A stretch of 64,000 nt of DNA from Nocardiopsis ansamitocini (GTDB taxonomy: Bacteria; Actinomycetota; Actinomycetes; Streptosporangiales; Streptosporangiaceae), in NCBI RefSeq assembly GCF_030268225.1, contig NZ_BSQG01000011.1:19751-83750 (forward strand). Reading direction: 5' to 3'. The position numbers and the translations under genes are program-made. Positions 1 through 17,081 of the stretch are shown piece after piece. Position 1 is the stretch's first letter. Each line of letters begins with the position of its first letter. The notes beneath the pieces were generated by a model, which saw only the letters and a program-made list of their open reading frames with translations, did not search any database and was not told where the DNA came from.

Positions 1-147
1 CATCACGCCCTGGAAGAGCATGGAGACCGCTCGTCCGACGTCGTGGAGAAAGCGGAAGATATCGCGCTGGAGGACGACCTTGACGACCCTGAGGTCGTGG
101 GAGAACCCGTAGTCCGGTGCCTGGACGGCCGTGTCCGACGATGTCAC
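1..147 (-). CDS. hypothetical protein, N-terminal fragment (gene continues past the window start); GTG start overlaps the lanKC stop codon (GTGA)
   Basis: Minus-strand frame MTSSDTAVQAPDYGFSHDLRVVKVVLQRDIFRFLHDVGRAVSMLFQGVM... has very high GC3, unlike the overlapping plus-strand ORF 43..318. The GTG sits directly on the TGA of the upstream synthetase gene. No family recognised. Confidence 0.3.
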   Translation of the reverse strand, partial: MTSSDTAVQAPDYGFSHDLRVVKVVLQRDIFRFLHDVGRAVSMLFQGVM

Positions 148-2716
148 GCGTTGCCTCCCGCAGAACTCTCGCAGCCCCGCGCGGAGAAGAAGGGCAGGAA
201 CGGCGCCCCCTGTCCGCGCGCTGTGGCCAGGGCCAGGAGTATGCCGGCGCCCCCGGTCGCCAGGTCCATCGACAAACGGATACCACGGCCGCCGGGAAAA
301 GCGACGTGGCCGCGGTAGGGCAGGGTGTAGGCGGCCAACTCGCGGGCGCGCTCCTCGACCGCCTCGGGCGCACCGCCCATTCTGGCCAGGGTGACGAGCT
401 GCCCCGCTTTGCCGAAGAACAGATCGGCCCGCACGGTCAATCGGGCCAGCGCCGAACGGCACAGGCCCGGAACGGCTTCGCGCACCCGGGCGTCCTCCCG
501 GTGGGCCAACAGGTCGCCCGCCACCAGGGCGATCCCCATGCCGCCTGCTTCCAGGTACGGCAGGGCTCGGGCCCCCTTGTCCTTGACCAGCAGGGCATCG
601 TCATCCGACGTCACGCAGTGGTCGAGGTCCCGGTGGATCGCACGGACCGCGGCGTCGAGACAGGCGGGGTCGGCGGTCTGCTCATACATACGGACGAAGA
701 AGAGCGCGATTCCCGACCACCCGCGCATGAGGCCGACGGGCAGGGCTGCGGTCCGCCCGCTGCTCGCCCGCTCCGCGCCCTCCGGGGGACCGTTCTCCAC
801 GAAGCCGGCGAGCCGGTCGGCCAGCGCCACGGCCCGCTCCCGATACCGGGCGTCCCCGTGGCTGTCCGCGAAGTGCAACAGGGTGGCACCGACCCCGGAG
901 AGGCCCGAGAAGAGGGACATGCCCCCGCTGGGAGCATCCGCGTGCCGCTCCAGCAGGTCGGCCGCCTCTTCCCCGTATCCGAGGTGGTCGAGGGCGTAGG
1001 CGAGACCGGCCACACCGTCGTAGAACCCCGGGTTGGGCCGGACCAGTCGCCGCCCCGCGTCGATCAGCCACTGTTCGTGGTCGGGGTGGCGGCCGTGGCC
1101 CGCCGTGTCCAGTGCCCAGAGGACGCCGGCCGCGCCGTGCGCGAAACCGAAGCCACCCGAGACGAACTGCTGGATGTCCCCGGGGAAGAGGCGGTCCCGA
1201 CGCTCGGGGGTCGCCGAGGCGAGAACCCCGGCGGCGATCGCCGCCGGCGACGGGGCCGCGGCGGGCGGCCACTGCCCGGAGGCGGCGGCCGTGCCTTCCG
1301 GCACCATCTCGGCTTCGATCTCGTCCGCCCACTCCGGGGGGACGGGGAAGTTGCGGCGCACGATCGCGACGAACTCCGCGGCCTTGGCCGAGTCAAGGAC
1401 CGTGATCGGACTGAACAGCATGAACACCACCAGGCGCAGGGCGGCCATTCCGTAGTCGTCGATGGCGGTCCCGCGCCGCTGCGCGACGTTGAAGCCGGGT
1501 GCGCCGAGCCCCGGCTTCCATTGGGCGTCCGCCGCGTCGAACGACTGCTCGAAGTCGATGAGCGTCACCGTGTCGTCGGCATCGACGAGCACATTGTTGA
1601 CGTGCAGGTCACCGAAGACCAGGCCGCGCTTGTGCACCTCGCCGACGATCTCCTTGAGCCGGTCCATGATCCGCAGTGCCCTGCGGGTGTAGTCGGCGAC
1701 CTCCTCGTCGTCGGGGTCCGCCTTGTTGACCCACGGGTGGAAGGCCGCACACCAGGAGTAGAGCGGGAGCCCCTCCGCGTACTCCTGCACCAGGAAGCGG
1801 TGCCCGCCCAGGGGGAAACTGTCGAGAAGGCCCGGGACGCCCGAGATCCCGTCGAGTCGGGTGAGCGCCTTCTCCTCGCGTTCCTGCCGGGCGACGGCGT
1901 CGTCGCCGTTCCCGTCCAGACCGGCATGCGGACGGGCCTCCTTCAACACGACGGTCATGCCGTCGGTGAGGCGTTCCGCGAGGTAGACGCCTCCCCCGTT
2001 GGAAAAGTGCAGCGCCTTCAGGACACGGTAGGGCTGTTGGGCCTCGCCGTTCTGCCCGGTGCGCAGGTGCGGTTTCAGGAAGTCCGGCATCTCGACCCAG
2101 GCCGGTGGGGAGAAGGCGGGTTGGCGGAGGTCGGGGACGAGGGCGCCGTCCGGGCGCCGGATCGCGGGAACCAGTTCCCCGTCCGCACCGGTGCACCGCA
2201 TCTCGGCGAACCCGCCGTAGCGAACGTAGAGGGGCCCCTGGCCCCACCGGAGGTCGCTGAGGATGTAGGGGCCCGGTTCGCCGCCGATCTTCTCGGAGAG
2301 CCCGACGAGAATCGATTCCAGTTCCTTCTCGTCACGTGGATAGATCGTGACAAGTTTCCCGCTGGATGCCCGGGGCGCATATTTGGCGGAGAAAACGAAC
2401 TGGATTCTCCGGTTCATCAGATACTTGAACGGAATTCGCCGGGCAACGCAGTACTCTCGGACCGCTTCGCAGATCTCTTCGGCGTTGTCCAGGGTTGCGG
2501 AGACGTGAATCTTCCAGCCCTGTTCCGGAAGGTCTGCGCCCTCTGGAAAGAGGTAGCGCCAGACCCCCTGATCACCGCTTACCCACCCACTGGGACAGTC
2601 AAGGCCGGAGATCGAGAACTCTCCGTCGCCGAGAAAAGCCGGGCCGCCCGTCCACCGGCGCGGGTCTTCATAGAAAAGCGGGTCCGCTTGCGTGTAGACC
2701 TCTACCCGATCGAGCA
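144..2716 (-). CDS. lanKC: class III lanthipeptide synthetase (LanKC-type: N-terminal pSer/pThr lyase, central Ser/Thr kinase, C-terminal LanC-like cyclase lacking Zn ligands)
   Basis: Kinase motifs seen: HKRGLVFGDLHVNNVLVD and LIDFEQSF. The LanC-like C-terminus has GFAHGAAGVLWAL, but the WCxG position reads RGWSGIA (no Cys) and the CHG position reads LATGGAG (no Cys/His). Loss of zinc ligands is characteristic of class III rather than class IV. Start placed at GTG 2716 (GGAGA 6 nt upstream). Upstream of that the frame has low GC3 and is not coding, so the ORF-track start at 3023 is rejected. Confidence 0.85.
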
Positions 2717-2740
2717 CGAGTGTTCTCCATTCGACAAACC

Positions 2741-2767
2741 GAAAACCCCGGCCCCGGAGCGGGGACC
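2741..2767 (-). promoter_or_regulatory. GC hairpin followed by T-tract on the minus strand about 25 nt upstream of the lanKC start (terminator/attenuator-like)
   Basis: Minus-strand reading cggtccccgctccggggccgggg then tttt. It lies between the SHOCT-domain gene and lanKC. Confidence 0.3.
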
Positions 2768-3124
2768 GATCTCTTCGGGTCGGGCACGTGAACAGTGGCC
2801 TCTTTTCAAAGAGGCGGAACGGACCGACGGGTCCTCTTGCGCATAATGCCCGCCGCAGATCCCGCGCATTATCGCCGGGCATCCGTGCGGACACCCTATT
2901 CACGTGTCCGGTGCCGCTCCAGCTCCCGGCAGCAGCCATGGCTCGGACCGGAGGTCGACCGACAGGGGGCAACCGGCCACGACGTCCCCGGAACGGTACC
3001 GGCCGGACGCTTCGGCCGGGCACACGGCGAGGAACGCTTCGCCGTGGAGCATTGCGTCGGGGACGACGACGCCGTTGCAGGGTGGCCCCGAAGGTCTGCT
3101 CCTGCGGGGCGTTCGGCGGACGGC

Positions 3125-4045
3125 TCAGAGCCGGTCGAGCAGCTCGGCCTTCTTGGCGGCGAACTCGTCGTCGGTGAGGAAACCGTCGGCGTGCAGGCGG
3201 CCCAGTCGCTCGATCTGCGCGTAGACAGCGTCCTCCTCGTCACCGTCACCGGTTCCGGGCTCCCCCGCGGGAAGGGCCTCCGGCCCGGCCCCCAACTGGC
3301 GGGCCGGTTGGGCCGTTCCGGCCCAGATGTAGGCGGTGATGGTGGCCGCCATCAGCAGTGTCGCCGCTCCCTCCCGCCCTTCCTCGCACAACAGGCAGGA
3401 GAAGTCGTGCTTGGGCTTGACCGCTTCCTTGGCCGCGAAACCGTGCTCGACCACGCGCAGGTACCCGTATTCCCACCCGTCGGAGGGCACCCATTCGGCT
3501 GCGGCCACGCGGGAGAGGGGGAACTCGCGCCGTTGTTCCTTGCGCTTGCGCGTCGTGGCCGCGGAACCGGACCACACCAGCCGCACCGACGCACCGTCGA
3601 AGGTGGCGGTTCCCTCCTCCGTCGTGATGTGCAGCGGCAGCTTGGGAACGAGGCGGGTGGCCACCTGAGCGGGGTCCGTAGCCGTTGCGTCGTCGAGGGC
3701 GTTCTCGATCGCGAAGGTGATCTGGTCGGAGTAGTACTCGGCCAACAGCTCGGTCTTCGCCGGACCGGTCAGCCGGAAGGGCTGGGCCTTCTCGTTCAGC
3801 ATCGCGCCCGCAGTGGCGTAGGGGTCGGCGTGCTCCCGCAGGTGCAGCTGAAGGACCCACCCCTTCTTCTTCCCGGCTCCTGGCCGAAAATCCACCGAGG
3901 CGATGGCCGCGATCGGCACCTCGCACTGGCCGAGCTTCTTCAACAGGGGGTCTTTGAACCACCCGGTGGCGTAGCGGATGGCGATCGACTCACTGCCAAA
4001 ACGCCAGACGGCCTGTTTCCCGCGCAATTCATCCATCGGCGCCAT
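3125..4045 (-). CDS. DUF4429-like protein with C-terminal SHOCT domain
   Basis: C-terminus GFLTDDEFAAKKAELLDRL resembles the short SHOCT oligomerisation motif; the N-terminal two-thirds resemble DUF4429. High GC3; ATG at 4045. Confidence 0.55.
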   Translation of the reverse strand: MAPMDELRGKQAVWRFGSESIAIRYATGWFKDPLLKKLGQCEVPIAAIASVDFRPGAGKKKGWVLQLHLREHADPYATAGAMLNEKAQPFRLTGPAKTELLAEYYSDQITFAIENALDDATATDPAQVATRLVPKLPLHITTEEGTATFDGASVRLVWSGSAATTRKRKEQRREFPLSRVAAAEWVPSDGWEYGYLRVVEHGFAAKEAVKPKHDFSCLLCEEGREGAATLLMAATITAYIWAGTAQPARQLGAGPEALPAGEPGTGDGDEEDAVYAQIERLGRLHADGFLTDDEFAAKKAELLDRL

Positions 4046-4165: not shown

Positions 4166-4999
4166 TCATCTGGCCCATTCCGGCCGTCGGGCCACGAGGA
4201 AGGTCTCCGACGGGGCGACCGGGCGAAGCAGGAGAAGGACGAAACCGAGCGTGCCGCGGAGGTTGTGCAGCCAGCTCTCCCGATAGTCCGATGTGTAGCG
4301 CAGGATCCGGGTCCGGGCGGCCGGGTCCTGCTCGTTGAAGCCCCAGTCGACGAGACCTCGGACGCACGCCCAGAGGAAGTTGTCCCACTCCTCGGCCGTG
4401 CTCACCTGGGCGTGGACGGGCATCCATCCCGCCGCGGTGACCTGTTCGAGCACACCGTTTAGGTCGGTGTGGGGGTCCTCGTCGAGGCTGAGCGCGGCGA
4501 GGGTCTGCTCGTTCGGGGGGCGGTGCCAGAAGCTCTCCCCCAACAGGACGTAGCCGTTGGGGAGCACCTGGGCGCGGAGGTGCTTCAAGGTGCCGTCCAG
4601 GCCGCCGAAGACCTCGGTGAGTCCCACACACATCACGAGGTCGCTGGGGTCCTGGGGCGTGAACGCGCGGGCGTTGACGGCGTGTCCGCTGAACCGGTCG
4701 GCCAGACCGCGGCGTTCGGCCTCCCGGGTGGCCCGGGCGATGTGCGCCGCGGAGAGGTCCACCCCGACGCACGAGGAGCCGGGGTGCAACTCCAGTGCGC
4801 GCAGCGACCAGGCGCCCAGACCGCAACCGATGTCGAGCACGGTCGCGTCGGACTTGAGCTCGACCATGCGCAGCAGTCGGTCGATGGTGGCCCCGGACAC
4901 GGGGCCCACCACCGGATGGTCGTCACCCAACCGGTTCCAGATGGCCTCATTGTCGATCCCGGTGTAGTCCATGGCCTGCGTCCTCTCGGGGGAACCCAC
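4166..4999 (-). CDS. class I SAM-dependent methyltransferase
   Basis: Motif I VLDIGCGLGAWS. GTG start directly abuts the TGA of the upstream gene (TGAGTG), with AGGAG 7 nt upstream. Alternative ATG at 4972. Confidence 0.8.
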   Translation of the reverse strand: MGSPERTQAMDYTGIDNEAIWNRLGDDHPVVGPVSGATIDRLLRMVELKSDATVLDIGCGLGAWSLRALELHPGSSCVGVDLSAAHIARATREAERRGLADRFSGHAVNARAFTPQDPSDLVMCVGLTEVFGGLDGTLKHLRAQVLPNGYVLLGESFWHRPPNEQTLAALSLDEDPHTDLNGVLEQVTAAGWMPVHAQVSTAEEWDNFLWACVRGLVDWGFNEQDPAARTRILRYTSDYRESWLHNLRGTLGFVLLLLRPVAPSETFLVARRPEWAR

Positions 5000-6511
5000 T
5001 CATCGCTCCTGGTCTTCGTCGGTGCCGTCGACCCATCGCCGCGCGGCTGCGGCGATCGCGTCGCGGGCCGCGCGCACCTCTGCCGCCAGGGGCCGGTCCC
5101 GGTCCAGCGGTGGGCTGATCTCGGCGAGCTCGGCCCAGAGGCTGTCGGGCTCGGCCTCCTGGCCGACCAGTGCGGCGTACTGGGCGAGGCCCACCCCGAG
5201 CGATCCGATGACGAGCCAGGCGTGCCCGAGCGCCTCGGCCACGGCGTTGGCACCGTTGAGCGCCATCGGGACATGGTCCTGGTTTCCGTTGTTGCAGGGC
5301 AGGGAGGTCAGAGAGGCCGGCACGACCAACTGCCTGATCCGGGAGACGAAAGACGTCGCGCTCACCTGCACACCGGCGAGTCCGCTGCCGGCTCCGGGCC
5401 GTGGGGTGAGCATCGGGGGCAGCCCACCGTTGGTCTCGGAAGCGCACAGCAGCGCGAGCTGCCGGTCGGCCAGGTAGGCCACCTGTTGGAGGCACAGGCC
5501 CAACTGGTCGGAGCACAGACCGACCGGCATGGCATGGAAGTTGCCGCCGTGCAGGACCTCTCCCTCGTAACAGACGGGGTTGTCCGTGGTCCCGCCGGCC
5601 TCACGGACAAGGATCTCCTCTTCCGCGTCCAACCGGTCCTGCACCGCTCCGAGGACCTGGGGGGCGCACCGGAGGCTGTAGGGCTCCTGAAGCGGACGCC
5701 CCGGGCCCCGCTCGGCCCCTTCGGGAAACTGCGACCTGATCCACCGGGCCACCCGTATCTGACCGTGTTGGCCTCTGACCTCGCCGATGCCGTGGTGGTA
5801 GGCCTGCGGATCCGCTCCCAGCAGGCGCGCCATCCTGCCGGTCAGGAGGGCGGACGCGCGCACCAGACGGGAGAGTTGCCGGTGGTTGTCGATGGTGAGT
5901 GCCAGCGAGACCCCGGTGCCGTTGACGAAGGCCAGCGCCTCGCGTGCAGACCACTCGACCGGCTCGGCGCCGACCGCTTCCAGTGCGCGCTCGGCGGGCA
6001 GGCAGACCCAGGCGCCCGCGTCGTCGCGCACCCACGCCTCCCCGCTTCCGCTGAAGGCGAGCGCGGCACTGGCCAGGGGCTGGAGGTCGCCGCTCGCGCT
6101 GACCGTCCCGTCCCGGGGGATCGCCGGGGTGAAACCGCTGTTCCACAACTTGGCGAGAAGCGACCAGAACTCCGGGGAGACCGCCGAGTGGCCCAGTCGC
6201 ATCCCGGACAGGCGCAACCACACCACCAGGCGACACACGTCGGGGGGCAGGGGACTGCCCTGGGCGGTCGCCAGATGGGCGATGAGCCCGCTGCCCTGTT
6301 CCTGGGCCGATTCGGCTGCGGGGAAGGCGACCAGCGGCCCGAATCCGTTCGTGACCCCGTAGACCGGCTTCCCGTCCGCGAGCGTCTTGGCCAGGGTGGT
6401 CATCCCGCCGCGCATCCGAGCGGCGTCCTCCTCTTCGCACTCCGCGAGTTCAGCGTCCCAATCCGCAGCTCGCGCGATCGCGGCGAGATTTCGCCGGGTA
6501 CCCGTCGTCAC
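5000..6511 (-). CDS. MIO-dependent aromatic amino acid ammonia-lyase/aminomutase (HAL/PAL/TAL family)
   Basis: MIO-forming tripeptide in TVSASGDLQPLAS. Also GFGPLV, NGTGVS, QEPYSLRCAPQ, HGGNFHAMPVG and NQDHVPMALNGAN. Start assigned to GTG at 6511, overlapping the stop of the upstream adenylating-enzyme gene (GTGA). Confidence 0.85.
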   Translation of the reverse strand: MTTGTRRNLAAIARAADWDAELAECEEEDAARMRGGMTTLAKTLADGKPVYGVTNGFGPLVAFPAAESAQEQGSGLIAHLATAQGSPLPPDVCRLVVWLRLSGMRLGHSAVSPEFWSLLAKLWNSGFTPAIPRDGTVSASGDLQPLASAALAFSGSGEAWVRDDAGAWVCLPAERALEAVGAEPVEWSAREALAFVNGTGVSLALTIDNHRQLSRLVRASALLTGRMARLLGADPQAYHHGIGEVRGQHGQIRVARWIRSQFPEGAERGPGRPLQEPYSLRCAPQVLGAVQDRLDAEEEILVREAGGTTDNPVCYEGEVLHGGNFHAMPVGLCSDQLGLCLQQVAYLADRQLALLCASETNGGLPPMLTPRPGAGSGLAGVQVSATSFVSRIRQLVVPASLTSLPCNNGNQDHVPMALNGANAVAEALGHAWLVIGSLGVGLAQYAALVGQEAEPDSLWAELAEISPPLDRDRPLAAEVRAARDAIAAAARRWVDGTDEDQER

Positions 6512-7626
6512 GTTTGCACTCCCGTGTTCGAGATCGGTTGCATCTGCACCCGCCGGAGTTTGCCCGTCTCGGAGCGGTCGATCCGGTCGACGGGAACCAC
6601 CTTGCGGGGACGGCATTCCAGTTCCGCCAGGGCGGCGGCCAGGTCGAGATCGGCTCCGGTACGGCCGCCGCCGGGAACGATCAGCAGGTCGAAGTGCTCG
6701 CCGATGAGGGGGTCGGTCACCGGCGTGCAGGCCAGGTCCGCACAGGACACCGAGGACCGCAGCCGTTCCTCGATGAGTTCGAGGTCGATCCTGCGTCCAT
6801 TGACGTTGACGAGCCGGCCGCGCCGACCGGCGAAGCCGAATCTGCGTGCGTCGATGATCCGCACCCGGTCGTCCATCTCCCAGGAATCCGGTGCGCGGCC
6901 GTCCGGAAAGCGAGCCAGCCGTGGACTGCGTACAGTTAGCGGAACTTCACCCTCGGTTGTACTCTCGGGGCGGGGCAGCGCGAACTCGACGTCCGGGCAC
7001 AGCTCCCAGGGCGGGTTCCCGCCGCTCCACCTGCGGGTGGCGATGGCACCGGTCTCCGTGGAGCCGAACAGTTCCAGCAGCGAGGCGGTTTCGGGGAACT
7101 TCGCAAGCAGGTCGGCGGCGGTGGCGGGGAGCACGGACGTGCTGTGGACAACGCTGACCCGTTCGAGAGAACGAACCCAGGAGGCTCGCTGAAGCAGAAT
7201 CCGAAAGGTCCAGGGGATGGCCATGACGGCCCAGCGCCGGTGCGGTTGCGGCGGCATGGCGGCGAACTGCGGGCGGTACCAAACAGGAAGCCCGAGCTTC
7301 GCGGGGACGAGGAGGCTGACGAGTGCCCCGTAGAGATGCCGGGGCGGAGCGAACGACAGGACCGCCTCGGGTCGGTCGGGTCCGATCATGGCCGCCAGGA
7401 GCGACGCTTCCGCCCACAGTTGCTCGCGACTGCGCCGCCAGCGTCGGCGTTCTCCGGTGGTCCCCGACGTGAAGAAGTCCAGTACCGGCGGGAACCGTTT
7501 CATGACGAAGTCCTCGACCGGTTCGTCCAGTTCGTCCCAGCGCACCGTCCAGGGGCGTTCGGTGAACTCGGGCGCCTGGAAGTCGCCGGCCAACAAGTCC
7601 GCCGGCGAGAGTCGGTCGTACGTCAC
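6508..7626 (-). CDS. short adenylate-forming enzyme (AMP-binding/ANL superfamily, PaaK-like size)
   Basis: FFTSGTTGERRRW (A3 core), GSTETG (A5-like), ETGKL (A10 Lys). Only about 372 aa. Start ambiguous: GTG 7626 (GGAGG 8 nt upstream, overlaps the uORF stop) or GTG 7662. Confidence 0.75.
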   Translation of the reverse strand: MTYDRLSPADLLAGDFQAPEFTERPWTVRWDELDEPVEDFVMKRFPPVLDFFTSGTTGERRRWRRSREQLWAEASLLAAMIGPDRPEAVLSFAPPRHLYGALVSLLVPAKLGLPVWYRPQFAAMPPQPHRRWAVMAIPWTFRILLQRASWVRSLERVSVVHSTSVLPATAADLLAKFPETASLLELFGSTETGAIATRRWSGGNPPWELCPDVEFALPRPESTTEGEVPLTVRSPRLARFPDGRAPDSWEMDDRVRIIDARRFGFAGRRGRLVNVNGRRIDLELIEERLRSSVSCADLACTPVTDPLIGEHFDLLIVPGGGRTGADLDLAAALAELECRPRKVVPVDRIDRSETGKLRRVQMQPISNTGVQT

Positions 7627-7703
7627 GCGACCGACCTCCGGTGCGCACGGCCCTTCGCGCACAATCGCGGAACCACCGTCTCCCCTCGGTCGAGGCAGGT
7701 CAT
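7623..7703 (-). CDS. 26-aa upstream ORF MTCLDRGETVVPRLCAKGRAHRRSVA, translationally coupled to the adenylating-enzyme gene
   Basis: ATG preceded by AAGGAGAG at 5 nt spacing. Its TGA overlaps GTG 7626 of the downstream gene (GTGA). No homology recognised. Confidence 0.3.
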   Translation of the reverse strand: MTCLDRGETVVPRLCAKGRAHRRSVA

Positions 7704-8882: not shown

Positions 8883-9764
8883 CTACCGTGTGCCATTCGA
8901 GCGCCGAGCCTTTTCCATCACGTATCGACCGTACGGCGAGTCCTTCATCTCTTCTCCCAACCTGTGACACGCCTCCGCGTCGATGAATCCCATACGCAAC
9001 GCGATCTCTTCGAGGCAGGCGATGCGCTCGCCTTGTCCCTTCAGCACCGAGTGGACATAGCAGGCGGACTCGAAGAGGGACTCCTCCGTTCCCGCGTCGA
9101 ACCACGCGACACTGTCTTCCAGCGTCACGAAACGCGCCCTTTCCTGGGCAAGGTAAGCCCGGTTGACATCGGTGATCTCAAGTTCGCCGCGCGCCGACGG
9201 ACGAACCTCCTTGGCCACCTCGACCGCATCGGCGCCGTAGAAATAGAGCCCCGTCACCGCGTAGTCGGAATCGGGGCGTTCCGGTTTTTCCTCGATCGAG
9301 ATCAACCTCCCGGACCGGTCGAACCCCCCGACCCCGTAGCGGCACGGATCAAAGACCTTGTGTCCGAAGAGGACGCATCCGTCCACCGTGCGTGCGGCCT
9401 CCTGGACGGCTTCCTCGAATCCGGGGCCGTGGAACAGGTTGTCGCCCAGTACCAGCGCACTGGGTCGGCCGTCGATATGACGTTCGCCGATGAGCAGAGC
9501 CTCCGCGATTCCTCGCGGCTCTTTTTGCTCCCGGTAACCGATATCGAGACCGAGCCGCTTTCCGTCTCCGAACACCCGTTGCAGAGGGGAAATCGATTCG
9601 GGGGCGGAGATCACCAGAATTTCACGGATTCCAGCGAGCATGAGAACCGCGATCGGATAGTAGATCATCGGCTTGTCGTAGATGGGAAACAACTGCTTAG
9701 ACGCCGCACTCGTACTCGGCCGGAGACGGCTCCCGTTTCCTCCCGCCAGAACAATACCCTTCAC
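8883..9764 (-). CDS. rmlA: glucose-1-phosphate thymidylyltransferase
   Basis: VKGIVLAGGNGSRLRP at the GTG start, with AGGAG 5 nt upstream. Also EKPERPDSDYAVTGLYFY. The longer N-terminal extension in the ORF track is rejected. Confidence 0.9.
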   Translation of the reverse strand: MKGIVLAGGNGSRLRPSTSAASKQLFPIYDKPMIYYPIAVLMLAGIREILVISAPESISPLQRVFGDGKRLGLDIGYREQKEPRGIAEALLIGERHIDGRPSALVLGDNLFHGPGFEEAVQEAARTVDGCVLFGHKVFDPCRYGVGGFDRSGRLISIEEKPERPDSDYAVTGLYFYGADAVEVAKEVRPSARGELEITDVNRAYLAQERARFVTLEDSVAWFDAGTEESLFESACYVHSVLKGQGERIACLEEIALRMGFIDAEACHRLGEEMKDSPYGRYVMEKARRSNGTR

Positions 9765-10037
9765 AGAAACTCCTGGTCGGACAGAGCGGTGGGTTTCACC
9801 GAACCGTACACGGGGTCTCTCGGGTTTTGTCCAGACTCGGCACCGTTCCTGCACGATGGTATGTTCACCGAGCCAGGGAGCTATACGCCCCCACCCCTTC
9901 CCGACCCACGCGAAAAACCTGGACCGGCAGCCCGAACTCCCCAAGTTAAAGGCGGCAACAACGCCGACGGCACTCAATGGCCGACCTTTTCATTGCGGAT
10001 GACTTTCTCCGAACGCGTACCAGGAAAAGGAAATACC

Positions 10038-11318
10038 GTGCGCATCCTCATAGCGACATACGCAGACAGGTCCTACTTCTTCAGCATGGTGCCACTGGCA
10101 TGGGCGCTGCGGGCCGCGGGTCACGAGGTGCGAGTGGCCAGCCAGCCGGAGCTGACCGACGCGGCCGCAAGCACCGGCCTGACCGTACTCCCGGTCGGCG
10201 AGGACCACATGTCCAGGAAACTGCTGCACTCGCCGGCGACCCAGCAGTACCAGGACTACCAGGAATCCGCCTTCAACCTGGCCGAGGACCGGCCGGAGGA
10301 GCTGACGTGGGACCGCCTCAAGAAGGCGCAACTCCGGTTCGTCGTCTGGTGGTGGAAGGTGATCAACGAACCGATGCTGAAAGAACTCGTGGCCTTCTGT
10401 CGGGAGTGGCGGCCGGATCTGGTGATCTGGGAGCCGATGACCTTCGCCGGGGCAGTGGCCGCCGAGGCGTGCGGTGCCGCCCACGCCCGCTTCCTGTGGA
10501 GCTACGACCTGGTCGGCCAGAATCGCCGGAACTACCTGGAGGCGATGGCGGAGCAGCCCGCGCACGAGCATGCCGACCCGCTGCGCGAATGGCTCACCTC
10601 CCGCGCCGAGCGCTACGACGTCCCCTTCTCCGAGGACCTGATCAGAGGGCAGTTCTCGATCGGCCCCATTCCCGCCTCCCTCAGGGCCGGGGAGCCCGTG
10701 GTCGAGGAGAAGGTGGGCGTGCGCCATGTCCCCTACGAGGGGGCAACCGTCCTGCCCGGATGGCTGCGCACCCCACTCGAGCAGCGACGCGTGCTCGTGG
10801 ACTGGCGGGCGCTGCGGGCCGGTGACCCCGAACGCAGCGAGGCGGTCCTGCGGGAGGTGCTGGCCGGCGCGATCGGCCTGGACGCGGAAGTGCTGCTGGT
10901 CCTTCCGCCGGCGGACCGGGAGACACTCCCCCCCTTCCCCGACCGTGTGCGCGTCATCGAAGAGGGCATCTCCCACATCGTGCTTCCCACGTGCTCCGCG
11001 GTGGTCCACCCCGGAGGGTTCGACACGTACTGCACGTCCTTGCTGCACGGGGTGCCGCAGGTGATCGTCCCCGAGCCGGACCTGTTCGACGCGACGCCAC
11101 TGGCGAGTGCCCTGGCCGACGCCTCCGCGGGCAGCGTGCTCCCCTGGGCGGGGTGCACCGCCGGGGGCGTCCGGGAGCGGCTGGACGAGGTGCTCGGTTC
11201 CGCGGAGATAGCCGCGGGCGTCCGCCGACTCCAGCAGGAGGTACTGGCCATGCCCACACCGGACCTTCTCGTGGCGGAACTGGAACGCCTCACCGTCAAG
11301 CACCGGAAAGAGGACTGA
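10038..11318 (+). CDS. GT1-family glycosyltransferase (antibiotic/macrolide-type)
   Basis: VRILIATYADRSYFFSMVPLAWALRAAGHEVRVAS N-terminal domain and HPGGFDTYCTSLLHGVPQVIVP C-terminal nucleotide-sugar domain. GTG at 10038 with AAAGGA RBS. The remaining upstream part of ORF 8172..11318 is antisense shadow of rmlA/rmlB. Confidence 0.85.
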   Translation: MRILIATYADRSYFFSMVPLAWALRAAGHEVRVASQPELTDAAASTGLTVLPVGEDHMSRKLLHSPATQQYQDYQESAFNLAEDRPEELTWDRLKKAQLRFVVWWWKVINEPMLKELVAFCREWRPDLVIWEPMTFAGAVAAEACGAAHARFLWSYDLVGQNRRNYLEAMAEQPAHEHADPLREWLTSRAERYDVPFSEDLIRGQFSIGPIPASLRAGEPVVEEKVGVRHVPYEGATVLPGWLRTPLEQRRVLVDWRALRAGDPERSEAVLREVLAGAIGLDAEVLLVLPPADRETLPPFPDRVRVIEEGISHIVLPTCSAVVHPGGFDTYCTSLLHGVPQVIVPEPDLFDATPLASALADASAGSVLPWAGCTAGGVRERLDEVLGSAEIAAGVRRLQQEVLAMPTPDLLVAELERLTVKHRKED

Positions 11319-11351: not shown

Positions 11352-12599
11352 TCAGCCGGTGAGGTCGTGGAGGAGGGGGACGAGGTCGGCGGGGGCGGGC
11401 ATGTCCTGCATTTCCCGGCGCAGGCGGTCGGCCGACCGGGCGAACCCCGGCTCCCCGAGCAGCCGTCGTACCCGCTCCCCCACCGTCTCCCCCGTGGCGT
11501 CGGCGGAGTCCAGCGCGAACCCCGCGCCTGCCCGCTCCACCTCCCGGGCCAACAGCGGAGCGTCGAACAACCGGTCCCTTGGGGCGATGACCTGGGGAAC
11601 CCCGTGGGTGAGCGAGGTGAACACGGTCCCCGGCCCGCCCTGGTCGACCATGGCGTGGCAGGTGGGGGTGAGTGCGTGGAGGGGGGCGTAGTCGACGAGG
11701 CGGGTGTTGGGGGGGATGGGTCCGAGGGTGTGGTGGTGGGCGGTGGGGATGGTGGCGATGATTTCGGCGTCGAGGTCGGCGAGTCCGTTGAGGATGTCGG
11801 TGACGGAGACGGTGTAGCCGCCGAAGCGTTCGGAGGCGCTGGTGCCCAGGGTGAGGCAGATGCGGGGTCGGTGGGGTGGGGTGCGCAGCCAGTGGGGGAC
11901 GACGGCGCGCCCGTTGTAGGGGACGTAGCGCATCGGCAGGTACCTGGCGTCGGACAACGGATCGATCCGCAGCGAGGGAGGAACCTGGTCGATGGTGGCC
12001 TGGCCGTGGACGAGTTCTTCGTCATAATCGAGGCCGTAGCGTGCGGCGAGGGCGGTGAGCCAGGCGGCTAGGGGGTCTTCTTGCTGGTCGGGGGGCTGCT
12101 CGCCCATCCGCCGCAGGTACAACCCCCGCATCCGGGAGAACAGGTCGAGGCTCCAGAGGAAGCGGACGTGGGCGGCCCCGCAGGCCCTGGCCGCGATCGC
12201 CCCCGCGAACGTCGTGGGCTCCCAGATCACCAGGTCCGGACGCCACTGGCGGCAGAACGCCACCAGGTCGCCCAGCATCGGCTCGTTGACCATGCGCCAC
12301 CACCAGGTCACCATCTGGCGATAGCCATCCCTCATGTAATCCCAGGTGAGAACCTCGTCGCGGTCTTCACCCATGTCGAAGACCGCGGTCCGGCCGCCGG
12401 CCGCGCGTTTGACCATCCTCGGAAAAGAGTGGTTGCGGCCCACGGGCACGAAGGGCAGTCCGGCACCGGTGACCACACCTTCGAGTTCGGGCTGACTGGC
12501 CACCCGCACCTCGTGCCCGGCCGCCCGCAACGCCCACGCCACGGGAACCATCCCCAGAAAATGCGTCCGCTCGGCCTGGGCCGCGATCACCACGCGCAC
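11352..12599 (-). CDS. GT1-family glycosyltransferase, paralog of 10038..11318, convergent
   Basis: VRVVIAAQAERTHFLGMVPVAWALRAAGHEVRVAS and HAMVDQGGPGTVFTSLTHGVPQVIAP. GTG 12599 with GAGGTGG RBS. Confidence 0.85.
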   Translation of the reverse strand: MRVVIAAQAERTHFLGMVPVAWALRAAGHEVRVASQPELEGVVTGAGLPFVPVGRNHSFPRMVKRAAGGRTAVFDMGEDRDEVLTWDYMRDGYRQMVTWWWRMVNEPMLGDLVAFCRQWRPDLVIWEPTTFAGAIAARACGAAHVRFLWSLDLFSRMRGLYLRRMGEQPPDQQEDPLAAWLTALAARYGLDYDEELVHGQATIDQVPPSLRIDPLSDARYLPMRYVPYNGRAVVPHWLRTPPHRPRICLTLGTSASERFGGYTVSVTDILNGLADLDAEIIATIPTAHHHTLGPIPPNTRLVDYAPLHALTPTCHAMVDQGGPGTVFTSLTHGVPQVIAPRDRLFDAPLLAREVERAGAGFALDSADATGETVGERVRRLLGEPGFARSADRLRREMQDMPAPADLVPLLHDLTG

Positions 12600-12660: not shown

Positions 12661-13659
12661 TCATCGCGCGACTGCGCGGGCTTCCCGGCTGTGTTCCGCC
12701 TGCGCCTCGGCCGCACGGATCGTGCTGCCGGTGTACTCCAGGAAGACGTCGTCGAGGGACGGCGGCGTCACCCTGATGGAGCGGACCGGGAACTTCAGGT
12801 CGGCGAACAGGCGCGGAACGAATTCCTCGCCCTCGGCGACCGTGAAGACGACGTTCTCCCCCTCGATCTGCGGAGCGATCCCGAACCGGTCCAGCAGCAC
12901 CGCACCGAGGGCGTCGGCCTCGGCCGAGACCATCTCCACCCGGTCCTTGCCGACGCTCTCCTTGAGCGCCCGGGGGCTGTCCAGCACCGCGATGGAGCCT
13001 TCGTCGATGATGGCGATCCGCTGACAGTTCTCGGCTTCCTCCAGGTAATGCGTCGTCATGAAAACGGTCACGCCGTCGCGCTCGTTGATCTCGCGGATGC
13101 CTTCCCAGATGGCCTGTCTGGTCTGCGGGTCGAGACCGATCGTCGGCTCGTCGAGGAAGAGCACGCGGGGCGAGTGGAGCAGGCCGCGGGCGATCTCCAG
13201 GCGTCGGCGCAGGCCACCGGAATAGGTCCCCACGATCCGGTCCTTGTGGCTGCCCAGGCCGACGGTCTCGATCGCGCGGTCGATCCGCTCCTCCACCAGG
13301 TGCTTGGGAACGGCGTAGATCTCGGCGTGGAACCGGAGGTTCTGCCGTCCGGTCAGGTAGCGGTCGAGGGTCTGCTCCTGGAAGACCAGCCCGATGGTGC
13401 GGCGGACCTCCTGGCGTTGGTGCACGACGTCGTAACCCCCGACGGAAGCGGATCCGCCCGTCGGAGTGAGGAGGGTGCACAGCATCTTGATGACCGTGGA
13501 CTTGCCCGCACCGTTGGGGCCGAGAAAACCGAAGATCTCGCCCGGCTCGACCTCGAAGTCGACGCCCTTGACCGCCTCGACCTCGTCGTAGCGCTTGTGG
13601 AGGCCGCGCGCGGACACGGCAGGGGCGGCGTTTCCTCCGGGCACACCCGAGTGGGTCAC
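12661..13659 (-). CDS. ABC transporter ATP-binding protein (DrrA-like); no cognate permease in the window
   Basis: Walker A GPNGAGKST, signature YSGGLRRRLEIA, Walker B VLFLDEPT. GTG start with GAGGAGG RBS. Confidence 0.85.
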   Translation of the reverse strand: MTHSGVPGGNAAPAVSARGLHKRYDEVEAVKGVDFEVEPGEIFGFLGPNGAGKSTVIKMLCTLLTPTGGSASVGGYDVVHQRQEVRRTIGLVFQEQTLDRYLTGRQNLRFHAEIYAVPKHLVEERIDRAIETVGLGSHKDRIVGTYSGGLRRRLEIARGLLHSPRVLFLDEPTIGLDPQTRQAIWEGIREINERDGVTVFMTTHYLEEAENCQRIAIIDEGSIAVLDSPRALKESVGKDRVEMVSAEADALGAVLLDRFGIAPQIEGENVVFTVAEGEEFVPRLFADLKFPVRSIRVTPPSLDDVFLEYTGSTIRAAEAQAEHSREARAVAR

Positions 13660-13734: not shown

Positions 13735-14301
13735 TCAGGACGCGGGCGGACCCGCGGCGAGCGTCCGGACGAACTCAACACCTGCCGTCTCCCACTGCTC
13801 CCGGTAGACGGCGAAGACGTTCGCCGTCCTCAACTGGTCGCCGTCCTTCACGTACTCGGGGAACACGACCTCTTTGACGGCGTCGATCGGGGTGCCGTCC
13901 AGCGCGGCGATCGAGTCGTCGAGCGTCCAGAAGTAGATCTTCCTGATGTTCCACATCGAGAACGCGTAGTTGGCGGTCAGCGCGGTCGCGGCGGTCGCGG
14001 CTCCCGGCCCGCCGCGAGACGGGTCGAGCGCCACGCTGCACTTCACGTAACCGCTGTGCGGGCTGAGTTCGTGCAACGAGGTGTAGCCGACGATCCTCCC
14101 CGACTCCGGGTGCACGATCTCGAACTGGGCGCAGACCTGCTGGTGCGGACCGTTGGGCCAGAGCGACATGGACGTGAAGGCGTCGCGGCTGGGGAGCTTC
14201 TCCAACCCCAGACCGGTCAGTTCCTCGAAAACGGCGCTACCGGTACGGGTCTGAGCGGCGGTGAGCCGGATCCCGAGCGCTTCGGTGTGCGGAATTATCA
14301 C
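13735..14301 (-). CDS. GNAT-family N-acetyltransferase (RimL/acetyltransf_3-like)
   Basis: SRGGPGAATAATALTANYAF matches the acetyl-CoA-binding motif A (R-G-x-G-x-A). GTG start at 14301. The ORF-track 5-prime extension to 14505 overlaps the precursor gene and hairpin and is rejected. Confidence 0.5.
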   Translation of the reverse strand: MIIPHTEALGIRLTAAQTRTGSAVFEELTGLGLEKLPSRDAFTSMSLWPNGPHQQVCAQFEIVHPESGRIVGYTSLHELSPHSGYVKCSVALDPSRGGPGAATAATALTANYAFSMWNIRKIYFWTLDDSIAALDGTPIDAVKEVVFPEYVKDGDQLRTANVFAVYREQWETAGVEFVRTLAAGPPAS

Positions 14302-14348
14302 GTCTGGAAACCCTCGACTACGAAATATTGACTGGCACCAAAGGAGTC

Positions 14349-14378
14349 GGCGTGCGCCGCGCAACCGCGGCGCACGCC
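14349..14378. terminator. perfect 13-bp inverted repeat (GGCGTGCGCCGCG-caac-CGCGGCGCACGCC), 10 nt downstream of the precursor gene stop
   Basis: Read directly. Sits between the precursor peptide and the GNAT gene, like the attenuator hairpins common after RiPP structural genes. Confidence 0.5.
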
Positions 14379-14387
14379 GGTGACCGA

Positions 14388-14489
14388 TCAACCGCAGTTG
14401 AAGTAACTGGCCCCACTGTTGGCCAGAAAAACCTGGTCGGACTCGATTTCCAACTCCTGAAGGGAGAGGATGTCGGAAAGCGTCATCAT
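14388..14489 (-). CDS. lanA1: class III lanthipeptide precursor peptide candidate (33 aa): MMTLSDILSLQELEIESDQVFLANSGASYFNCG
   Basis: Not in the ORF track (below its size cutoff). AAAGAGGTGG Shine-Dalgarno immediately upstream. The leader carries an ILELQ-like motif (DILSLQELEIE). The core carries exactly one Ser-x-x-Ser-x-x-x-Cys motif (SGASYFNC), the labionin/lanthionine-forming pattern of class III substrates. Confidence 0.6.
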   Translation of the reverse strand: MMTLSDILSLQELEIESDQVFLANSGASYFNCG

Positions 14490-15286: not shown

Positions 15287-16609
15287 ATGGTGATGAGCGA
15301 TCAGGCCGCGCGGATCCTCGACGAGGTCCGCGCCTACCACCGGGAGACCCAGCAGGAACAGGAGTTCATTCCGGGTGTCACCGAGATCTGGTCATCCGGC
15401 GCGGTTCTCGACGAAGAGGACCGGGTGTCTCTGGTCGAGGCCGCCCTGGAGATGCGGATCGCAGCGGGCAGGAACTCGCGCAAATTCGAGTCCATCTTCG
15501 CCCGCAGGCTGAACCGGCGCAAAGCCCACCTGACCAACTCCGGTTCGTCGGCGAACCTGCTCTCCCTGTCGGCGCTGACGTCGCACCTGTTGGAAGAACG
15601 CCGGCTCCGGCCCGGCGACGAAGTGATCACGGTCGCCGCGGGGTTCCCCACCACCGTCAACCCGATCCTGCAGAACGGGCTGATCCCGGTATTCGTGGAC
15701 GTCGAGCTGCGGACCTACAACACCACCGCCGATCGGGTGGCTCAAGCGATCGGTCCGCGCACCCGGGCGATCATGATCGCGCACGCGTTGGGCAACCCGT
15801 TCGAGGCCACCGAAATCGCCCAGTTGGCCGAGGACAACGACCTGTTCCTGATCGAGGACAACTGCGACGCCGTGGGCTCCACCTACGACGGGCGACTGAC
15901 GGGTTCCTTCGGCGACCTGTCGACGGTGAGCTTCTATCCGGCCCATCACCTCACCATGGGCGAAGGCGGCTGCGTGCTCACCTCGAACCTGGTTCTGGCC
16001 CGGATCGTGGAGTCGATGCGCGACTGGGGGCGGGACTGCTGGTGCGAACCCGGGGAGAGCAACACCTGCCACAAGCGGTTCGCCTACCAGCTGGGCACGC
16101 TGCCGGCCGGGTACGACCACAAGTACACCTTCTCCCACGTGGGCTACAACCTGAAGGGAACCGATCTTCAGGCGGCTCTCGGTCTGAGCCAACTCACCAA
16201 ACTCGACGGGTTCTCAGCGGCCCGGCGTCGCAACTGGCGCCGGCTGCGCGAGGGTCTCGACGGCCTGCCGTGGCTGCTGCTTCCCGAGGCGACACCGCGC
16301 GGCGATCCGAGCTGGTTCGGTTTCGTTATGACTGTTTCGCCAGCGGCACCGTTCAGCAGAGCGGAACTGGTCGAGTTCCTGGAGAACCGAAAGATCGGTA
16401 CCCGCCTGCTGTTTGCCGGGAATCTGACACGGCACCCCGCGTACATCGACCGCCCCCACCGCGTGGCCGACGACCTGACCAACAGTGACCTGATCACGGA
16501 GCAGACGTTCTGGACCGGTGTCTATCCGGGACTCACCGACGAGATGCTCGACTACGTCATCTCCTCCATCACCGAGTTCGTGAAGACACGCGGGGGCTCT
16601 GGCCATTGA
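15287..16609 (+). CDS. NDP-4-keto-6-deoxyhexose 3-dehydrase (E1/ColD/SpnQ-type, PMP- and [2Fe-2S]-dependent member of the DegT/DnrJ/EryC1 aminotransferase fold)
   Basis: [14 protein letters not shown] has His where aminotransferases have the PLP lysine. Exact C-X57-C-X1-C-X7-C spacing (EDNC ... [13 protein letters not shown]), the E1 iron-sulfur signature. ATG 15287 with GGAAGGA RBS. Confidence 0.85.
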
Positions 16610-16814
16610 ACACGACCGGCACGGCCTGGAAAATGATTCCCCGAGCGGTTAACAGTCGACTTCCCCAGCGGGATAAATACGGCCGGAGAACAACCCGACT
16701 TCCATTTTCGCCGCGTGGCGGGTAATTTCTGTTCACGCTGTCCGGTTAACTCGGGACAGCGACTCGCACACTGGACTATCAGATTTCGAGTAGACCTGAG
16801 GAGGTGATTATTTC

Positions 16815-16934
16815 ATGGCACTCTCGGACGTCCTGCTTCTCCAGGGAATGGAGATCGAGACGGCGGGCAACGATGTCCCCCTTCTCGGAAGTGGTTTGAG
16901 CATTACCGGCTGCACCGTACTGCAGGCCGCATAG
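16815..16934 (+). CDS. lanA2: class III lanthipeptide precursor peptide candidate (39 aa): MALSDVLLLQGMEIETAGNDVPLLGSGLSITGCTVLQAA
   Basis: Not in the ORF track. GAGGAGGTG RBS 10 nt upstream. Leader LSDVLLLQGMEIET parallels the other precursor (LSDILSLQELEIES). Core has a single S-x-x-S-x-x-x-C motif (SGLSITGC). TAG stop. Confidence 0.65.
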   Translation: MALSDVLLLQGMEIETAGNDVPLLGSGLSITGCTVLQAA

Positions 16935-17053
16935 TCCGCGATTATGCGGTCACATTGGGTTCGGACCCGTGATGATCCGTGGCACTGCTTTTCGCGGTTC
17001 GAATAGCAGGGCCGCGGGGAATGAGCGGCGAAGCGGACCCACAGGTGGGGAGC

Positions 17054-17081
17054 GGGGCCTCGCGGACGACCGCGAGGCCCC
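17054..17081. terminator. perfect 12-bp stem hairpin (GGGGCCTCGCGG-acga-CCGCGAGGCCCC) between convergent lanA2 and the hydrolase gene
   Basis: Read directly from the sequence. Confidence 0.55.

Follow-up and report, generated by a model that had tools for sequence, protein, structure and literature searches.

A class III lanthipeptide locus of Nocardiopsis ansamitocini that probably joins a lipolanthine-like peptide module to a saccharomicin-like aryl-glycoside module

Here we describe a locus at the left end of a 64-kb stretch of DNA from Nocardiopsis ansamitocini (64,000 nucleotides of contig NZ_BSQG01000011.1, hereafter the window), in which the genes for a class III lanthipeptide synthetase, LanKC, and two short precursor peptides, A1 and A2, are interleaved with genes for aryl-acid formation, deoxysugar biosynthesis and two glycosyltransferases (GTs). 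We propose, with a probability of roughly 0.7, that these genes form one cluster in which a lipolanthine-like module for a peptide made on the ribosome and modified after translation (RiPP) is joined to a saccharomicin-like aryl-glycoside module, yielding a hybrid product. Open reading frames (ORFs) in this DNA, which has about 68% G+C, were chosen by third-position GC (GC3), and identities were assigned through Pfam and NCBIfam scans. The genes on which the proposal turns are as follows:

144..2717, minus strand: lanKC, class III lanthipeptide synthetase of 857 amino acids (aa) (NF038151, 961 bits with the cutoff at 575; Pfam domains RamC_N, Pkinase and LANC_like)
5000..6511, minus strand: 4-methylideneimidazole-5-one (MIO) enzyme, Sam8-like (Pfam Lyase_aromatic, 363 bits; the ORF is open to 6616)
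6508..7662, minus strand: short adenylate-forming enzyme (ANL), Sam7-like (Pfam AMP-binding; about 372-384 aa, 372 aa in the NCBI model; 100% identical to an NCBI protein of N. ansamitocini)
7878..8870, minus strand: rmlB, dTDP-glucose 4,6-dehydratase (TIGR01181, 409 bits against a cutoff of 365)
8883..9770, minus strand: rmlA, glucose-1-phosphate thymidylyltransferase (TIGR01207, 367.5 bits against a cutoff of 360.65; start and Shine-Dalgarno read)
10038..11318, plus strand: GTb, EryCIII-like GT1 enzyme (TIGR04516, 429 bits, just under the cutoff of 440)
11352..12596, minus strand: GTa, EryCIII-like GT1 enzyme, encoded last in the A1 operon (TIGR04516, 493 bits with the cutoff at 440)
13735..14301, minus strand: GNAT-fold protein of a rare family (weak Pfam match; 100% identical to a protein that NCBI lists for N. 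ansamitocini as 'GNAT family protein')
14388..14489, minus strand: precursor A1, 33 aa, core ...NSGASYFNCG (sequence MMTLSDILSLQELEIESDQVFLANSGASYFNCG; Shine-Dalgarno AAGAGGTGG)
15287..16609, plus strand: E1/RfbH-type NDP-4-keto-6-deoxyhexose 3-dehydrase, dependent on pyridoxamine phosphate and an Fe-S cluster (NF011936, 670 bits against a cutoff of 423)
16815..16934, plus strand: precursor A2, 39 aa, core ...GSGLSITGCTVLQAA (sequence MALSDVLLLQGMEIETAGNDVPLLGSGLSITGCTVLQAA; Shine-Dalgarno GAGGAGGTG)

By third-position GC, Pfam and NCBIfam, every gene that an initial annotation of this DNA had named was recovered at or near the position assigned to it, with two corrections among the genes listed above. 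The lanKC gene stands, but its 5' end, which had been put at 2716, was one base off frame, and the true end is 2717, where a GTG start agrees with the N-termini of homologues. Both GT1 genes likewise stand, but GTb had been placed on the wrong strand; the minus-strand ORF at 9990-11333 (447 aa) is antisense to it and was rejected, as it matches no family, translates into an Arg/Gly-rich sequence and is in the wrong phase by GC3. Read as they are transcribed, the minus-strand genes on the lanKC side run rmlA, rmlB, ANL, MIO, a methyltransferase gene (MT), a gene for a DUF4429/SHOCT protein, lanKC and an ABC-2 permease gene, with GTGA overlaps at the ANL/MIO and lanKC/permease junctions and with MIO and MT abutting as TGAGTG. 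A second minus-strand array consists of A1, the GNAT-like gene, an ABC transporter ATPase gene and GTa, all co-directional and separated by gaps of 64-86 bp. GTb lies on the plus strand, convergent with GTa, and the 3-dehydrase gene and A2 are both on the plus strand as well.

That the locus is one biosynthetic gene cluster is well supported by comparison with related sequences. We assembled 80 LanKC loci from other species, taking one genome per species, searched them by tblastn with every window protein, and placed the 81 LanKCs, including that of the window, on a neighbour-joining tree that carries no bootstrap support values. The window LanKC groups with those of four Nocardiopsis and Glycomyces loci (L001, L002, L006 and L018 in our numbering; 57-59% identity), and the sister group comprises Sinosporangium and Nonomuraea loci (L003, L004, L005 and L007; 53% identity). 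All eight loci of this clade contain GNAT-like genes (one to four copies by the family hidden Markov model, HMM) and a match to the ABC ATPase, which is 58-63% identical in seven of them and short and weak in L007 (116 aa, 38%), while GTs of the GTa/GTb (TIGR04516) type are found in seven. MIO, ANL, rmlA and rmlB also occur in those clade loci that can be viewed in full, such as L001 and L006. The other 72 LanKC loci are without these genes, the exception being L026, which has a GT fragment, MIO and ANL; L026 again excepted, their lanKC is followed closely by precursors of the ordinary two-ring kind (SapB-, AmfS- or labyrinthopeptin-like).

The arrangement of these genes differs among genera, with the precursor-GNAT-GT array retained. 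L001 and L006 share the order MIO-ANL-rmlB-rmlA / GTb / GTa-GNAT-A1-like / GNAT2-LanKC, whereas in Glycomyces fuscus the same gene set is spread over two contigs, the second of which holds GTb, rmlA, rmlB, ANL and MIO. In N. alba the order is GTb, rmlA, rmlB, ANL, MIO, MT, LanKC and permease, followed by genes for a sugar C-methyltransferase, a short-chain dehydrogenase/reductase, a nucleotide-sugar dehydrogenase and another GT. With sugar genes on both of its sides, lanKC is therefore embedded among sugar genes in N. alba, and this layout probably shows what lies to the left of the window. By this order one would expect there the remainder of the ABC-2 permease gene and genes for an NDP-hexose C-methyltransferase, a 4-ketoreductase/epimerase, a nucleotide-sugar dehydrogenase and a third GT, possibly together with a second GNAT-like gene or a gene for a β-ketoacyl synthase III or an acyl carrier protein. 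The Nonomuraea versions have GTs and GNAT-like genes, and the Sinosporangium version has a GNAT-like gene and other sugar genes. Taken together, the clade-wide co-occurrence, the embedding of lanKC, the retained array and the GT lineages described below argue strongly against two unrelated neighbouring clusters.

The synthetase and its precursors define the peptide half of the proposed product. The NF038151 match spans positions 2-833 of the 833 in the model, and the class IV model reaches only 368 bits against its cutoff of 650. Both A1 and A2 have strong Shine-Dalgarno sequences, a leader motif of the LxLQ type (ILSLQ in A1, VLLLQ in A2) and a ring motif S-x-x-S-x-x-x-C (SGASYFNC and SGLSITGC, respectively). 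A six-frame search of the window for the combined leader and ring pattern returned exactly these two peptides, compared with a mean of 0.017 matches in 60 Markov-simulated sequences. Homologous precursors were found in four related genomes (N. ganjiahuensis, N. tropica, N. codii and Glycomyces fuscus), and in an alignment of 15 precursors from nine loci plus the window the only invariant positions are the L-Q of the leader and the two serines and the cysteine of the ring. The cores are 8-17 residues long with a single ring motif; most A1-type cores retain S-Y inside the ring, and neither A1, A2 nor any other core of the family contains Trp. Just 3' of the A1 stop, a 14-bp G+C-rich hairpin on the minus strand (14348..14379; -35.7 kcal/mol, z = -3.5 against shuffles) is an attenuator or terminator-like element.

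The next-nearest LanKC branches are L008, L009, L010, L014 and L026. Their cores end in a C-terminal SxxSxxC in L008, L009, L010 and L026 and in a C-terminal SxxSxxxC in L014; L009 encodes a type I polyketide synthase (PKS) together with a LanD-like flavoprotein, and L008 has genes for a fatty acyl-AMP ligase, a ketosynthase and a GNAT upstream of lanKC. In L008 and L009, the two members of this group whose surrounding genes were inspected, this is the lipolanthine architecture set out by Wiebach et al. 2020. We also observed that L026, from Streptomyces sp. CB00316, combines an acyl carrier protein (ACP) gene with ANL and MIO (ACP-ANL-MIO at 1557-4538), a LanKC 43% identical to that of the window, and a 27-aa precursor ending ...STVSNGC (L026:12655-12732); it could be an aryl-acid version of a lipolanthine that arose within another, separate lineage of LanKC. 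Nonomuraea loci of the clade (L004:4458-5351 and L004:9271-9978, with equivalents in L005 and L007) have a 97-aa ORF with a DSFS motif directly after the GNAT-like gene and a LanD-like decarboxylase gene directly before lanKC, with no precursor found within 10 kb. The 97-aa ORF was considered as a precursor and rejected, as its DSFS motif resembles, by eye, that of a carrier protein; it has no NCBIfam match.

The aryl-acid module consists of the MIO enzyme and the ANL. The likely GTG start of the MIO gene is at 6511, overlapping the ANL stop. When aligned to the histidine ammonia-lyase (HAL) of Pseudomonas putida, the MIO enzyme has an intact ASG triad, His-Leu at the positions of HAL Ser82-His83, and Gln at that of HAL Glu414. 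We take the His-Leu pair to be the switch that confers specificity for tyrosine, as at His89-Leu90 of the tyrosine ammonia-lyase RsTAL. The same pair occurs in all homologues, among which the MIO enzymes of the related and of the saccharomicin-like clusters are 61-72% identical to that of the window. Its best profile and Protein Data Bank (PDB) scores are to histidine ammonia-lyase, with all NCBIfam equivalog cutoffs missed, but a reading as histidine ammonia-lyase was rejected on the specificity residues. We therefore predict from these residues a tyrosine ammonia-lyase of the Sam8 type, likened to Sam8 through a homologue of 65.7% identity in an rmlA-ANL-MIO-multi-GT cluster of Saccharothrix australiensis; profile scores do not separate lyase from mutase. 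For the ANL, the best NCBIfam match is TIGR02372, a PYP-type 4-coumarate-CoA ligase with a similar architecture of 386 aa, at a score below the cutoff, and its sequence leads us to predict a p-coumarate-activating ligase. More than 120 homologues occur in actinomycetes, and they are always short.

The links between this module and saccharomicin biosynthesis extend beyond single enzymes. The ANL is 55% identical to P0064 of S. australiensis, where ANL and MIO overlap in the same way, and the ANL-MIO pair stands beside rmlA in clusters of Prauserella and S. australiensis that have no LanKC gene within 10 kb. These clusters are saccharomicin-like: they contain aminosugar genes and, as far as they can be viewed, five to ten genes or gene fragments for EryCIII-like GTs that share 46-50% identity with GTa. 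In saccharomicin biosynthesis, Sam8 is a characterised tyrosine ammonia-lyase and Sam7 its acyl-CoA-synthetase-like partner (PMC3469384); for Sam7, the proposed role is to activate the acid, which would then form an amide with taurine, and the glycan sits on the resulting aglycone. The visible part of the window holds no gene for a β-ketoacyl-ACP synthase III (KASIII), ACP, PKS, fatty acid synthase (FAS) or nonribosomal peptide synthetase (NRPS), and thus no ACP beside the ANL, and the contexts of L001, L006 and L083 contain no PKS, FAS or NRPS gene. A KASIII-like gene directly follows MIO only in L001 (N. ganjiahuensis; L001:1-933) and L082 (G. fuscus). In G. fuscus (L082:6660-10617) we noted that it is followed by genes for an acyl-CoA dehydrogenase (ACAD) and a full-length ANL and by a 91-aa carrier-like ORF. 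In some members, the tyrosine-derived acid may be elaborated further.

The GNAT-like protein is a candidate for linking acid to peptide. Its AlphaFold model (predicted local distance difference test score 81.5) confirms the GNAT fold, with Rv0802c, SpeG and RimJ as the top Foldseek matches at TM-scores of about 0.6, and we predict that it is an N-acyltransferase. GNATs known to N-acylate RiPPs are GdvG, of goadvionin, and LpvE, of lipoavitide. The family appears to be rare: a word-indexed protein search retrieved only four relatives. The lipolanthine-type GNAT of L008 is remotely related, scoring 35.5 bits with the family HMM at an identity of 19-22%. In a Streptomyces atratus plasmid, the GNAT-like, ANL and MIO genes are adjacent, with the GNAT-like gene directly upstream (L085:9374-12675). 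The triad adjoins a gene for a fused ABC transporter as well as GT and sugar genes; a group II intron reverse transcriptase is inserted nearby, and there is no LanKC gene within 10 kb. L001, L002, L006 and L018 have two to four GNAT-like genes each, belonging to two subtypes that are about 28% identical; one adjoins precursor genes, and the other is found just upstream of lanKC or of the ABC-2 permease gene. It is possible that the two subtypes form hetero-oligomers or act as precursor-specific enzymes.

As for the sugars, the 3-dehydrase matches the E1 crystal structures 3bcx and 3bb8 at 499 bits and has the characteristic motifs, namely a His in place of the lysine that binds pyridoxal phosphate (SFYPAHH) and a CxC...C iron-sulfur motif. 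Its gene was not found in the visible stretches of related loci; therefore, C-3 deoxygenation may be particular to this strain. Orthologues of GTa occur in seven clade loci at 54-68% identity, and those of GTb, from L001, L006, L082 and L083, form a clade of their own. GTa and GTb each belong to a lineage specific to these LanKC loci and are not recent imports. The PDB sequence matches of GTa are 7yp3, EryCIII, VinC and SpnP. GTa passes the 'activator-dependent GT' model, though the visible part of the window contains no P450-like activator. A reading of these enzymes as macrolide-resistance GTs was rejected, the MGT, OleI and Mgt models scoring far below their cutoffs. Relatives of the locus further carry, beside lanKC, genes for N,N-dimethyltransferases of the DesVI/TylM1 type, which act on dTDP-aminosugars (L006:12627-13397, L002:5529-6254, L004:6712-7566 and L007:7166-7873); the L006 enzyme scores 203 bits to DesVI, and the remaining three were assigned only from the similarity of their N-terminal sequences. 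Within 10 kb, the Nocardiopsis and Glycomyces loci have no gene for an aminotransferase of the DegT family.

The analysis shows which genes are present, that they occur together across the clade and how they are arranged in operons; from their predicted activities we infer the order of steps, the cap, and the identity and acceptor of the sugars. LanKC would phosphorylate and dehydrate the two invariant serines in the short cores of A1 and A2, of about 9-15 residues in this model, and then join them to the invariant cysteine in one ring, of labionin or lanthionine. Peptidases encoded outside the visible part would remove the leader. The MIO enzyme would convert tyrosine to p-coumarate, the short ANL would activate this acid, and the GNAT-fold protein would, by inference, move it to the free N-terminal amine of the ring peptide, the counterpart in this model of the taurine in saccharomicin. 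The sugar route would begin with RmlA and RmlB, which would make dTDP-4-keto-6-deoxyglucose, from which the E1-type enzyme would remove the 3-hydroxyl, and GTa and GTb would attach 6-deoxy or 3,6-dideoxy sugars to the cap phenol or to a ring tyrosine. The ABC-2 permease and the DrrA-type ATPase, perhaps along with the DUF4429 protein, would export the product or protect the producer. For the A1 core NSGASYFNCG, the computed monoisotopic neutral masses are 982.360 Da after loss of two H2O, 1128.397 Da with p-coumaroyl added, 1274.455 Da with a further deoxyhexose, 1258.460 Da with a 3,6-dideoxyhexose instead, and 1404.518 Da with both sugars; for the A2 core SGLSITGCTVLQAA they are 1283.654 Da after the same loss and 1429.691 Da with p-coumaroyl. 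The initial annotation had suggested small, sugar-decorated one-ring peptides, possibly coumaroyl-capped, a suggestion that the co-occurring genes, the His-Leu switch and the MIO and ANL homologies support at the level of sequence. It is tempting to go further and place the ring peptide, instead of taurine, on a saccharomicin-type hydroxycinnamoyl unit, with a deoxysugar chain on the cap phenol, giving a hybrid class of RiPP, phenylpropanoid and oligosaccharide; this more specific structure is a tentative proposal, to which we give clearly less than even odds.

Several observations weigh against the proposed hybrid and its assembly. The product is predicted here from genes alone, and the left part of the cluster lies outside the window. 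The CoA-pyrophosphate loop of the GNAT-like protein is degenerate, reading GPGAAT where a related GNAT has QRGIGA, so that the protein may not use acyl-CoA or be an acyltransferase; moreover, by the family HMM, saccharomicin-like clusters that have ANL and MIO have no GNAT-like gene. The nearest solved relatives of GTa glycosylate macrolactones rather than peptides. No single residue that could accept a sugar is common to all cores, Tyr being absent from A2 and from one Nocardiopsis precursor type, and the visible part of the window, which ends short of the left flank, contains neither a 4-ketoreductase nor the E3 reductase partner of E1 nor any further tailoring genes. Finally, MIO is missing from the Nonomuraea relatives, whose ANL lies about 24 kb away from lanKC; the acid is therefore not universal in the clade. 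In the three Nonomuraea loci, three increasingly loose patterns also failed to find a precursor.

We weighed these points together with two other ways of reading the locus. The initial annotation had cautioned that two clusters might merely be adjacent, in this case a plain class III mini-lanthipeptide cluster and one for a saccharomicin-like glycoside, that is, a hydroxycinnamoyl amide of a small amine. This is improbable in our view. It would account for the Prauserella and Saccharothrix clusters, in which ANL, MIO, rmlA and relatives of GTa do without a nearby LanKC, for the small-molecule aglycones on which the closest solved relatives of GTa act, and for the position of part of the sugar/ANL set some 24 kb from lanKC in Nonomuraea indica. 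In the window, however, the genes are interleaved, with the E1 gene placed between the two precursor genes, and a precursor and GTa share one co-directional array that is conserved in five genomes. The flanking of the N. alba lanKC by sugar genes and the restriction of the GTa and GTb lineages to LanKC loci point the same way, and the locus encodes nothing else that could supply an aglycone or an amine partner. The association holds over the whole LanKC clade, across several genera and despite rearrangement, and is absent from 71 of the 72 other loci. It is this clade-specific co-occurrence, along with the interleaving, the rearranged order and the coupled genes, that favours a single cluster, as the initial annotation had preferred.

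A single cluster could also be organized differently, with the sugars placed directly on the peptide, either on the phenol of the ring Tyr or on a Ser or Thr beside the Cys, and with the acid serving another end. It could form an ester on a sugar, prime an acyl chain built with the KASIII, ACAD and second ANL seen in some relatives, or appear as beta-tyrosine through aminomutase activity. We regard this arrangement as unlikely, though less so than two separate clusters. Its appeal lies in the S-Y retained inside the ring of most A1-type cores and in the Tyr O-glycosylation that cluster-encoded GTs are known to carry out in cacaoidin and lipoavitide. The KASIII-like gene that follows MIO in G. 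fuscus and N. ganjiahuensis, with the ACAD, full-length ANL and carrier-like ORF of G. fuscus, and the ACP gene that precedes ANL-MIO in Streptomyces CB00316 would fit an acyl chain, just as sequences that do not tell lyase from mutase would accommodate a beta-amino acid. On the other hand, A2 has no Tyr, nor has one precursor type in each Nocardiopsis locus, no KASIII or ACP gene is present in the visible window, and the closest MIO homologues belong to saccharomicin-like clusters, in which a cinnamate-type acid is amide-linked to an amine and glycosylated on its phenol. A single cluster making an acyl-capped, glycosylated ring peptide therefore remains our preferred interpretation.

Comparison with known systems shows which elements of this interpretation have precedents. 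The closest are the lipolanthines and goadvionins (microvionin, nocavionin and goadvionin), which share the very short core with a single motif and whose LanKC is the nearest phylogenetic neighbour; as the proposed product would, they combine a RiPP with a separately made acyl unit and have a GNAT encoded beside lanKC, as in L008, and in goadvionin it is the GNAT GdvG that joins acyl unit and peptide. In contrast to lipolanthine clusters, the window lacks, as far as it is visible, genes for a PKS, a FAS or a guanidino-fatty acid, and Pfam detected no flavoprotein decarboxylase equivalent to the lipolanthine LanD in its first 22 kb (1-22 kb). The acyl source would instead be a tyrosine ammonia-lyase with a short ligase, accompanied by two GTs and dTDP-deoxysugar genes, and the lipolanthine-type GNAT is only a remote relation of the one described here. 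The cores also differ from those of lipolanthines, having the spacing SxxSxxxC and residues after the Cys, and for this reason we expect labionin or lanthionine rather than avionin. In this respect they resemble the LanD-less 'subtype III' of Wiebach et al. 2020, whose cores likewise continue after the Cys and for which GTs were mentioned among the tailoring genes. With the sam cluster of Saccharothrix espanaensis, which makes saccharomicin, the locus shares Sam8- and Sam7-type enzymes, the ANL-MIO order beside rmlA, EryCIII-like GT1 enzymes and dTDP-6-deoxysugar genes. Saccharomicin, however, is a taurine amide that carries 17 sugars added by ten GTs and involves no ribosomal peptide, whereas the window has two GTs in view and the LanKC, precursor and GNAT-like genes interleaved with them; Sam5, the HpaB-type 3-hydroxylase, is lacking from its visible part.

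Two further comparisons concern glycosylation. NAI-112, from Actinoplanes, resembles the proposed product in pairing a class III synthetase with a GT, encoded in the same cluster, that attaches a 6-deoxyhexose once the rings have formed, but it is a larger peptide with labionin and methyllabionin motifs, is N-glycosylated on Trp and has no aryl-acid module; tblastn found no homologue of GTa or GTb in the Actinoplanes LanKC loci L040 and L042. Lipoavitides and cacaoidin, which are class V-type RiPPs, have a deoxysugar O-linked to Tyr that is supplied by cluster-encoded NDP-sugar genes and a GT, and in lipoavitide the N-terminus is acylated by a GNAT that uses acyl-CoA. They differ in their ring-forming enzymes (LanKY/LanD-type, AviMeCys), in the FabH-type fatty-acid source of the acyl group and in the absence of an MIO enzyme.

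The locus thus combines known kinds, namely glycosylated or acylated class III lanthipeptides and RiPP hybrids, and is not a categorically new system. To our knowledge, NAI-112 is the only characterised glycosylated class III lanthipeptide, and the acylated ones, lipolanthines and goadvionins, amount to a handful. The initial annotation's remark that class III peptides are almost never acylated was nevertheless too sweeping, as the N-acylated lipolanthines and goadvionins are the nearest phylogenetic neighbours here. Its impression that the combination of genes is unfamiliar agrees with our reading of the open-access literature, in which we found neither a tyrosine ammonia-lyase nor saccharomicin-type genes associated with a lanthipeptide; we likewise found no published product or description of these Nocardiopsis clusters in that literature, a search from which subscription journals were largely left out. 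Several glycosylated or acylated class III lanthipeptides have strong antinociceptive activity or activity against methicillin-resistant Staphylococcus aureus. The window locus and its relatives in at least Nocardiopsis and Glycomyces, with versions in Nonomuraea, Sinosporangium and one Streptomyces, define a conserved, uncharacterised family, which forms an evolutionary link between two natural-product families that had been thought unrelated. It offers targets for discovery whose products are small and of predictable mass, candidate enzymes that could place hydroxycinnamoyl groups and deoxysugars on peptides, and a pointer to the as yet unassigned amide-forming step of saccharomicin biosynthesis. 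Should the more specific structure proposed above hold, the product would be the first RiPP to bear a phenylpropanoid cap and, among class III lanthipeptides, the first to carry an aryl-O-glycoside, and the rare GNAT-fold family would make up, with a Sam7-type ligase, a general device for amide-linking cinnamate-type acids to amines.

The remaining features of the locus concern transport, tailoring and its boundaries:

1..147, minus strand: 5'-terminal 49 codons of a gene for an ABC-2 permease (by tblastn, 62% identical over 37 aa to L006:17515-18372, an ABC2_membrane protein)
3125..4045, minus strand: protein with DUF4429 and SHOCT domains (Pfam)
4166..4999, minus strand: class I S-adenosylmethionine-dependent methyltransferase, MT (Pfam and PDB sequence search)
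12661..13659, minus strand: DrrA-type ABC transporter ATPase (TIGR01188, 336 bits against a cutoff of 312)
17051..17084, plus strand: 15-bp hairpin between A2 and a convergent hydrolase gene (-39 kcal/mol, z = -5.2)

The ABC ATPase had been described as lacking a permease, which does not hold: the GTG start of the permease gene, at 147, overlaps the lanKC stop, the same lanKC-permease order is found in N. alba, and the gene continues past the left edge of the window. As this gene is cut at the edge, the cluster is truncated by the window and is larger than 1-17081; the contiguous block that the initial annotation had drawn there is real, but not its extent. The MT has a 47% identical orthologue at the same position in N. 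alba. The DUF4429/SHOCT protein is probably an accessory of transport or immunity. Homologues are encoded in the LanKC loci L001, L006 and L018 and in the lipolanthine-type L008; the gene adjoins that of the ABC ATPase in L006 and L018 and is two genes away from it in L001. In class III loci with mini-cores, DUF4429 genes thus recur beside lanKC or the gene for the ABC ATPase (window 3125-4045; L006:13404-14249; L008:14566-15426).

On the right, the cluster probably ends at the strong hairpin of 17051-17084. Beyond it lie genes for an alpha/beta hydrolase, a TetR protein, a dimethylargininase and a catalase, which are not conserved as neighbours in the related loci, where tblastn found only scattered weak matches to the TetR family; the remainder of the 64-kb window is unrelated to the cluster. 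A search for regulatory repeats in four long intergenic regions gave nothing convincing, and a sigma-70 promoter scan gave no match. Between 8000 and 10000, rmlA and the intergenic region between rmlA and GTb have a lower G+C content (0.626) and a weaker third-position GC than neighbouring genes, which may reflect a different origin or relaxed selection. Farther along the window, at 30791-38012, a gene for an SPFH/Band-7 protein of 744 aa overlaps a downstream gene for a 1664-aa DUF3686/DUF7902/AAA ATPase, a pair that is unrelated to the cluster.

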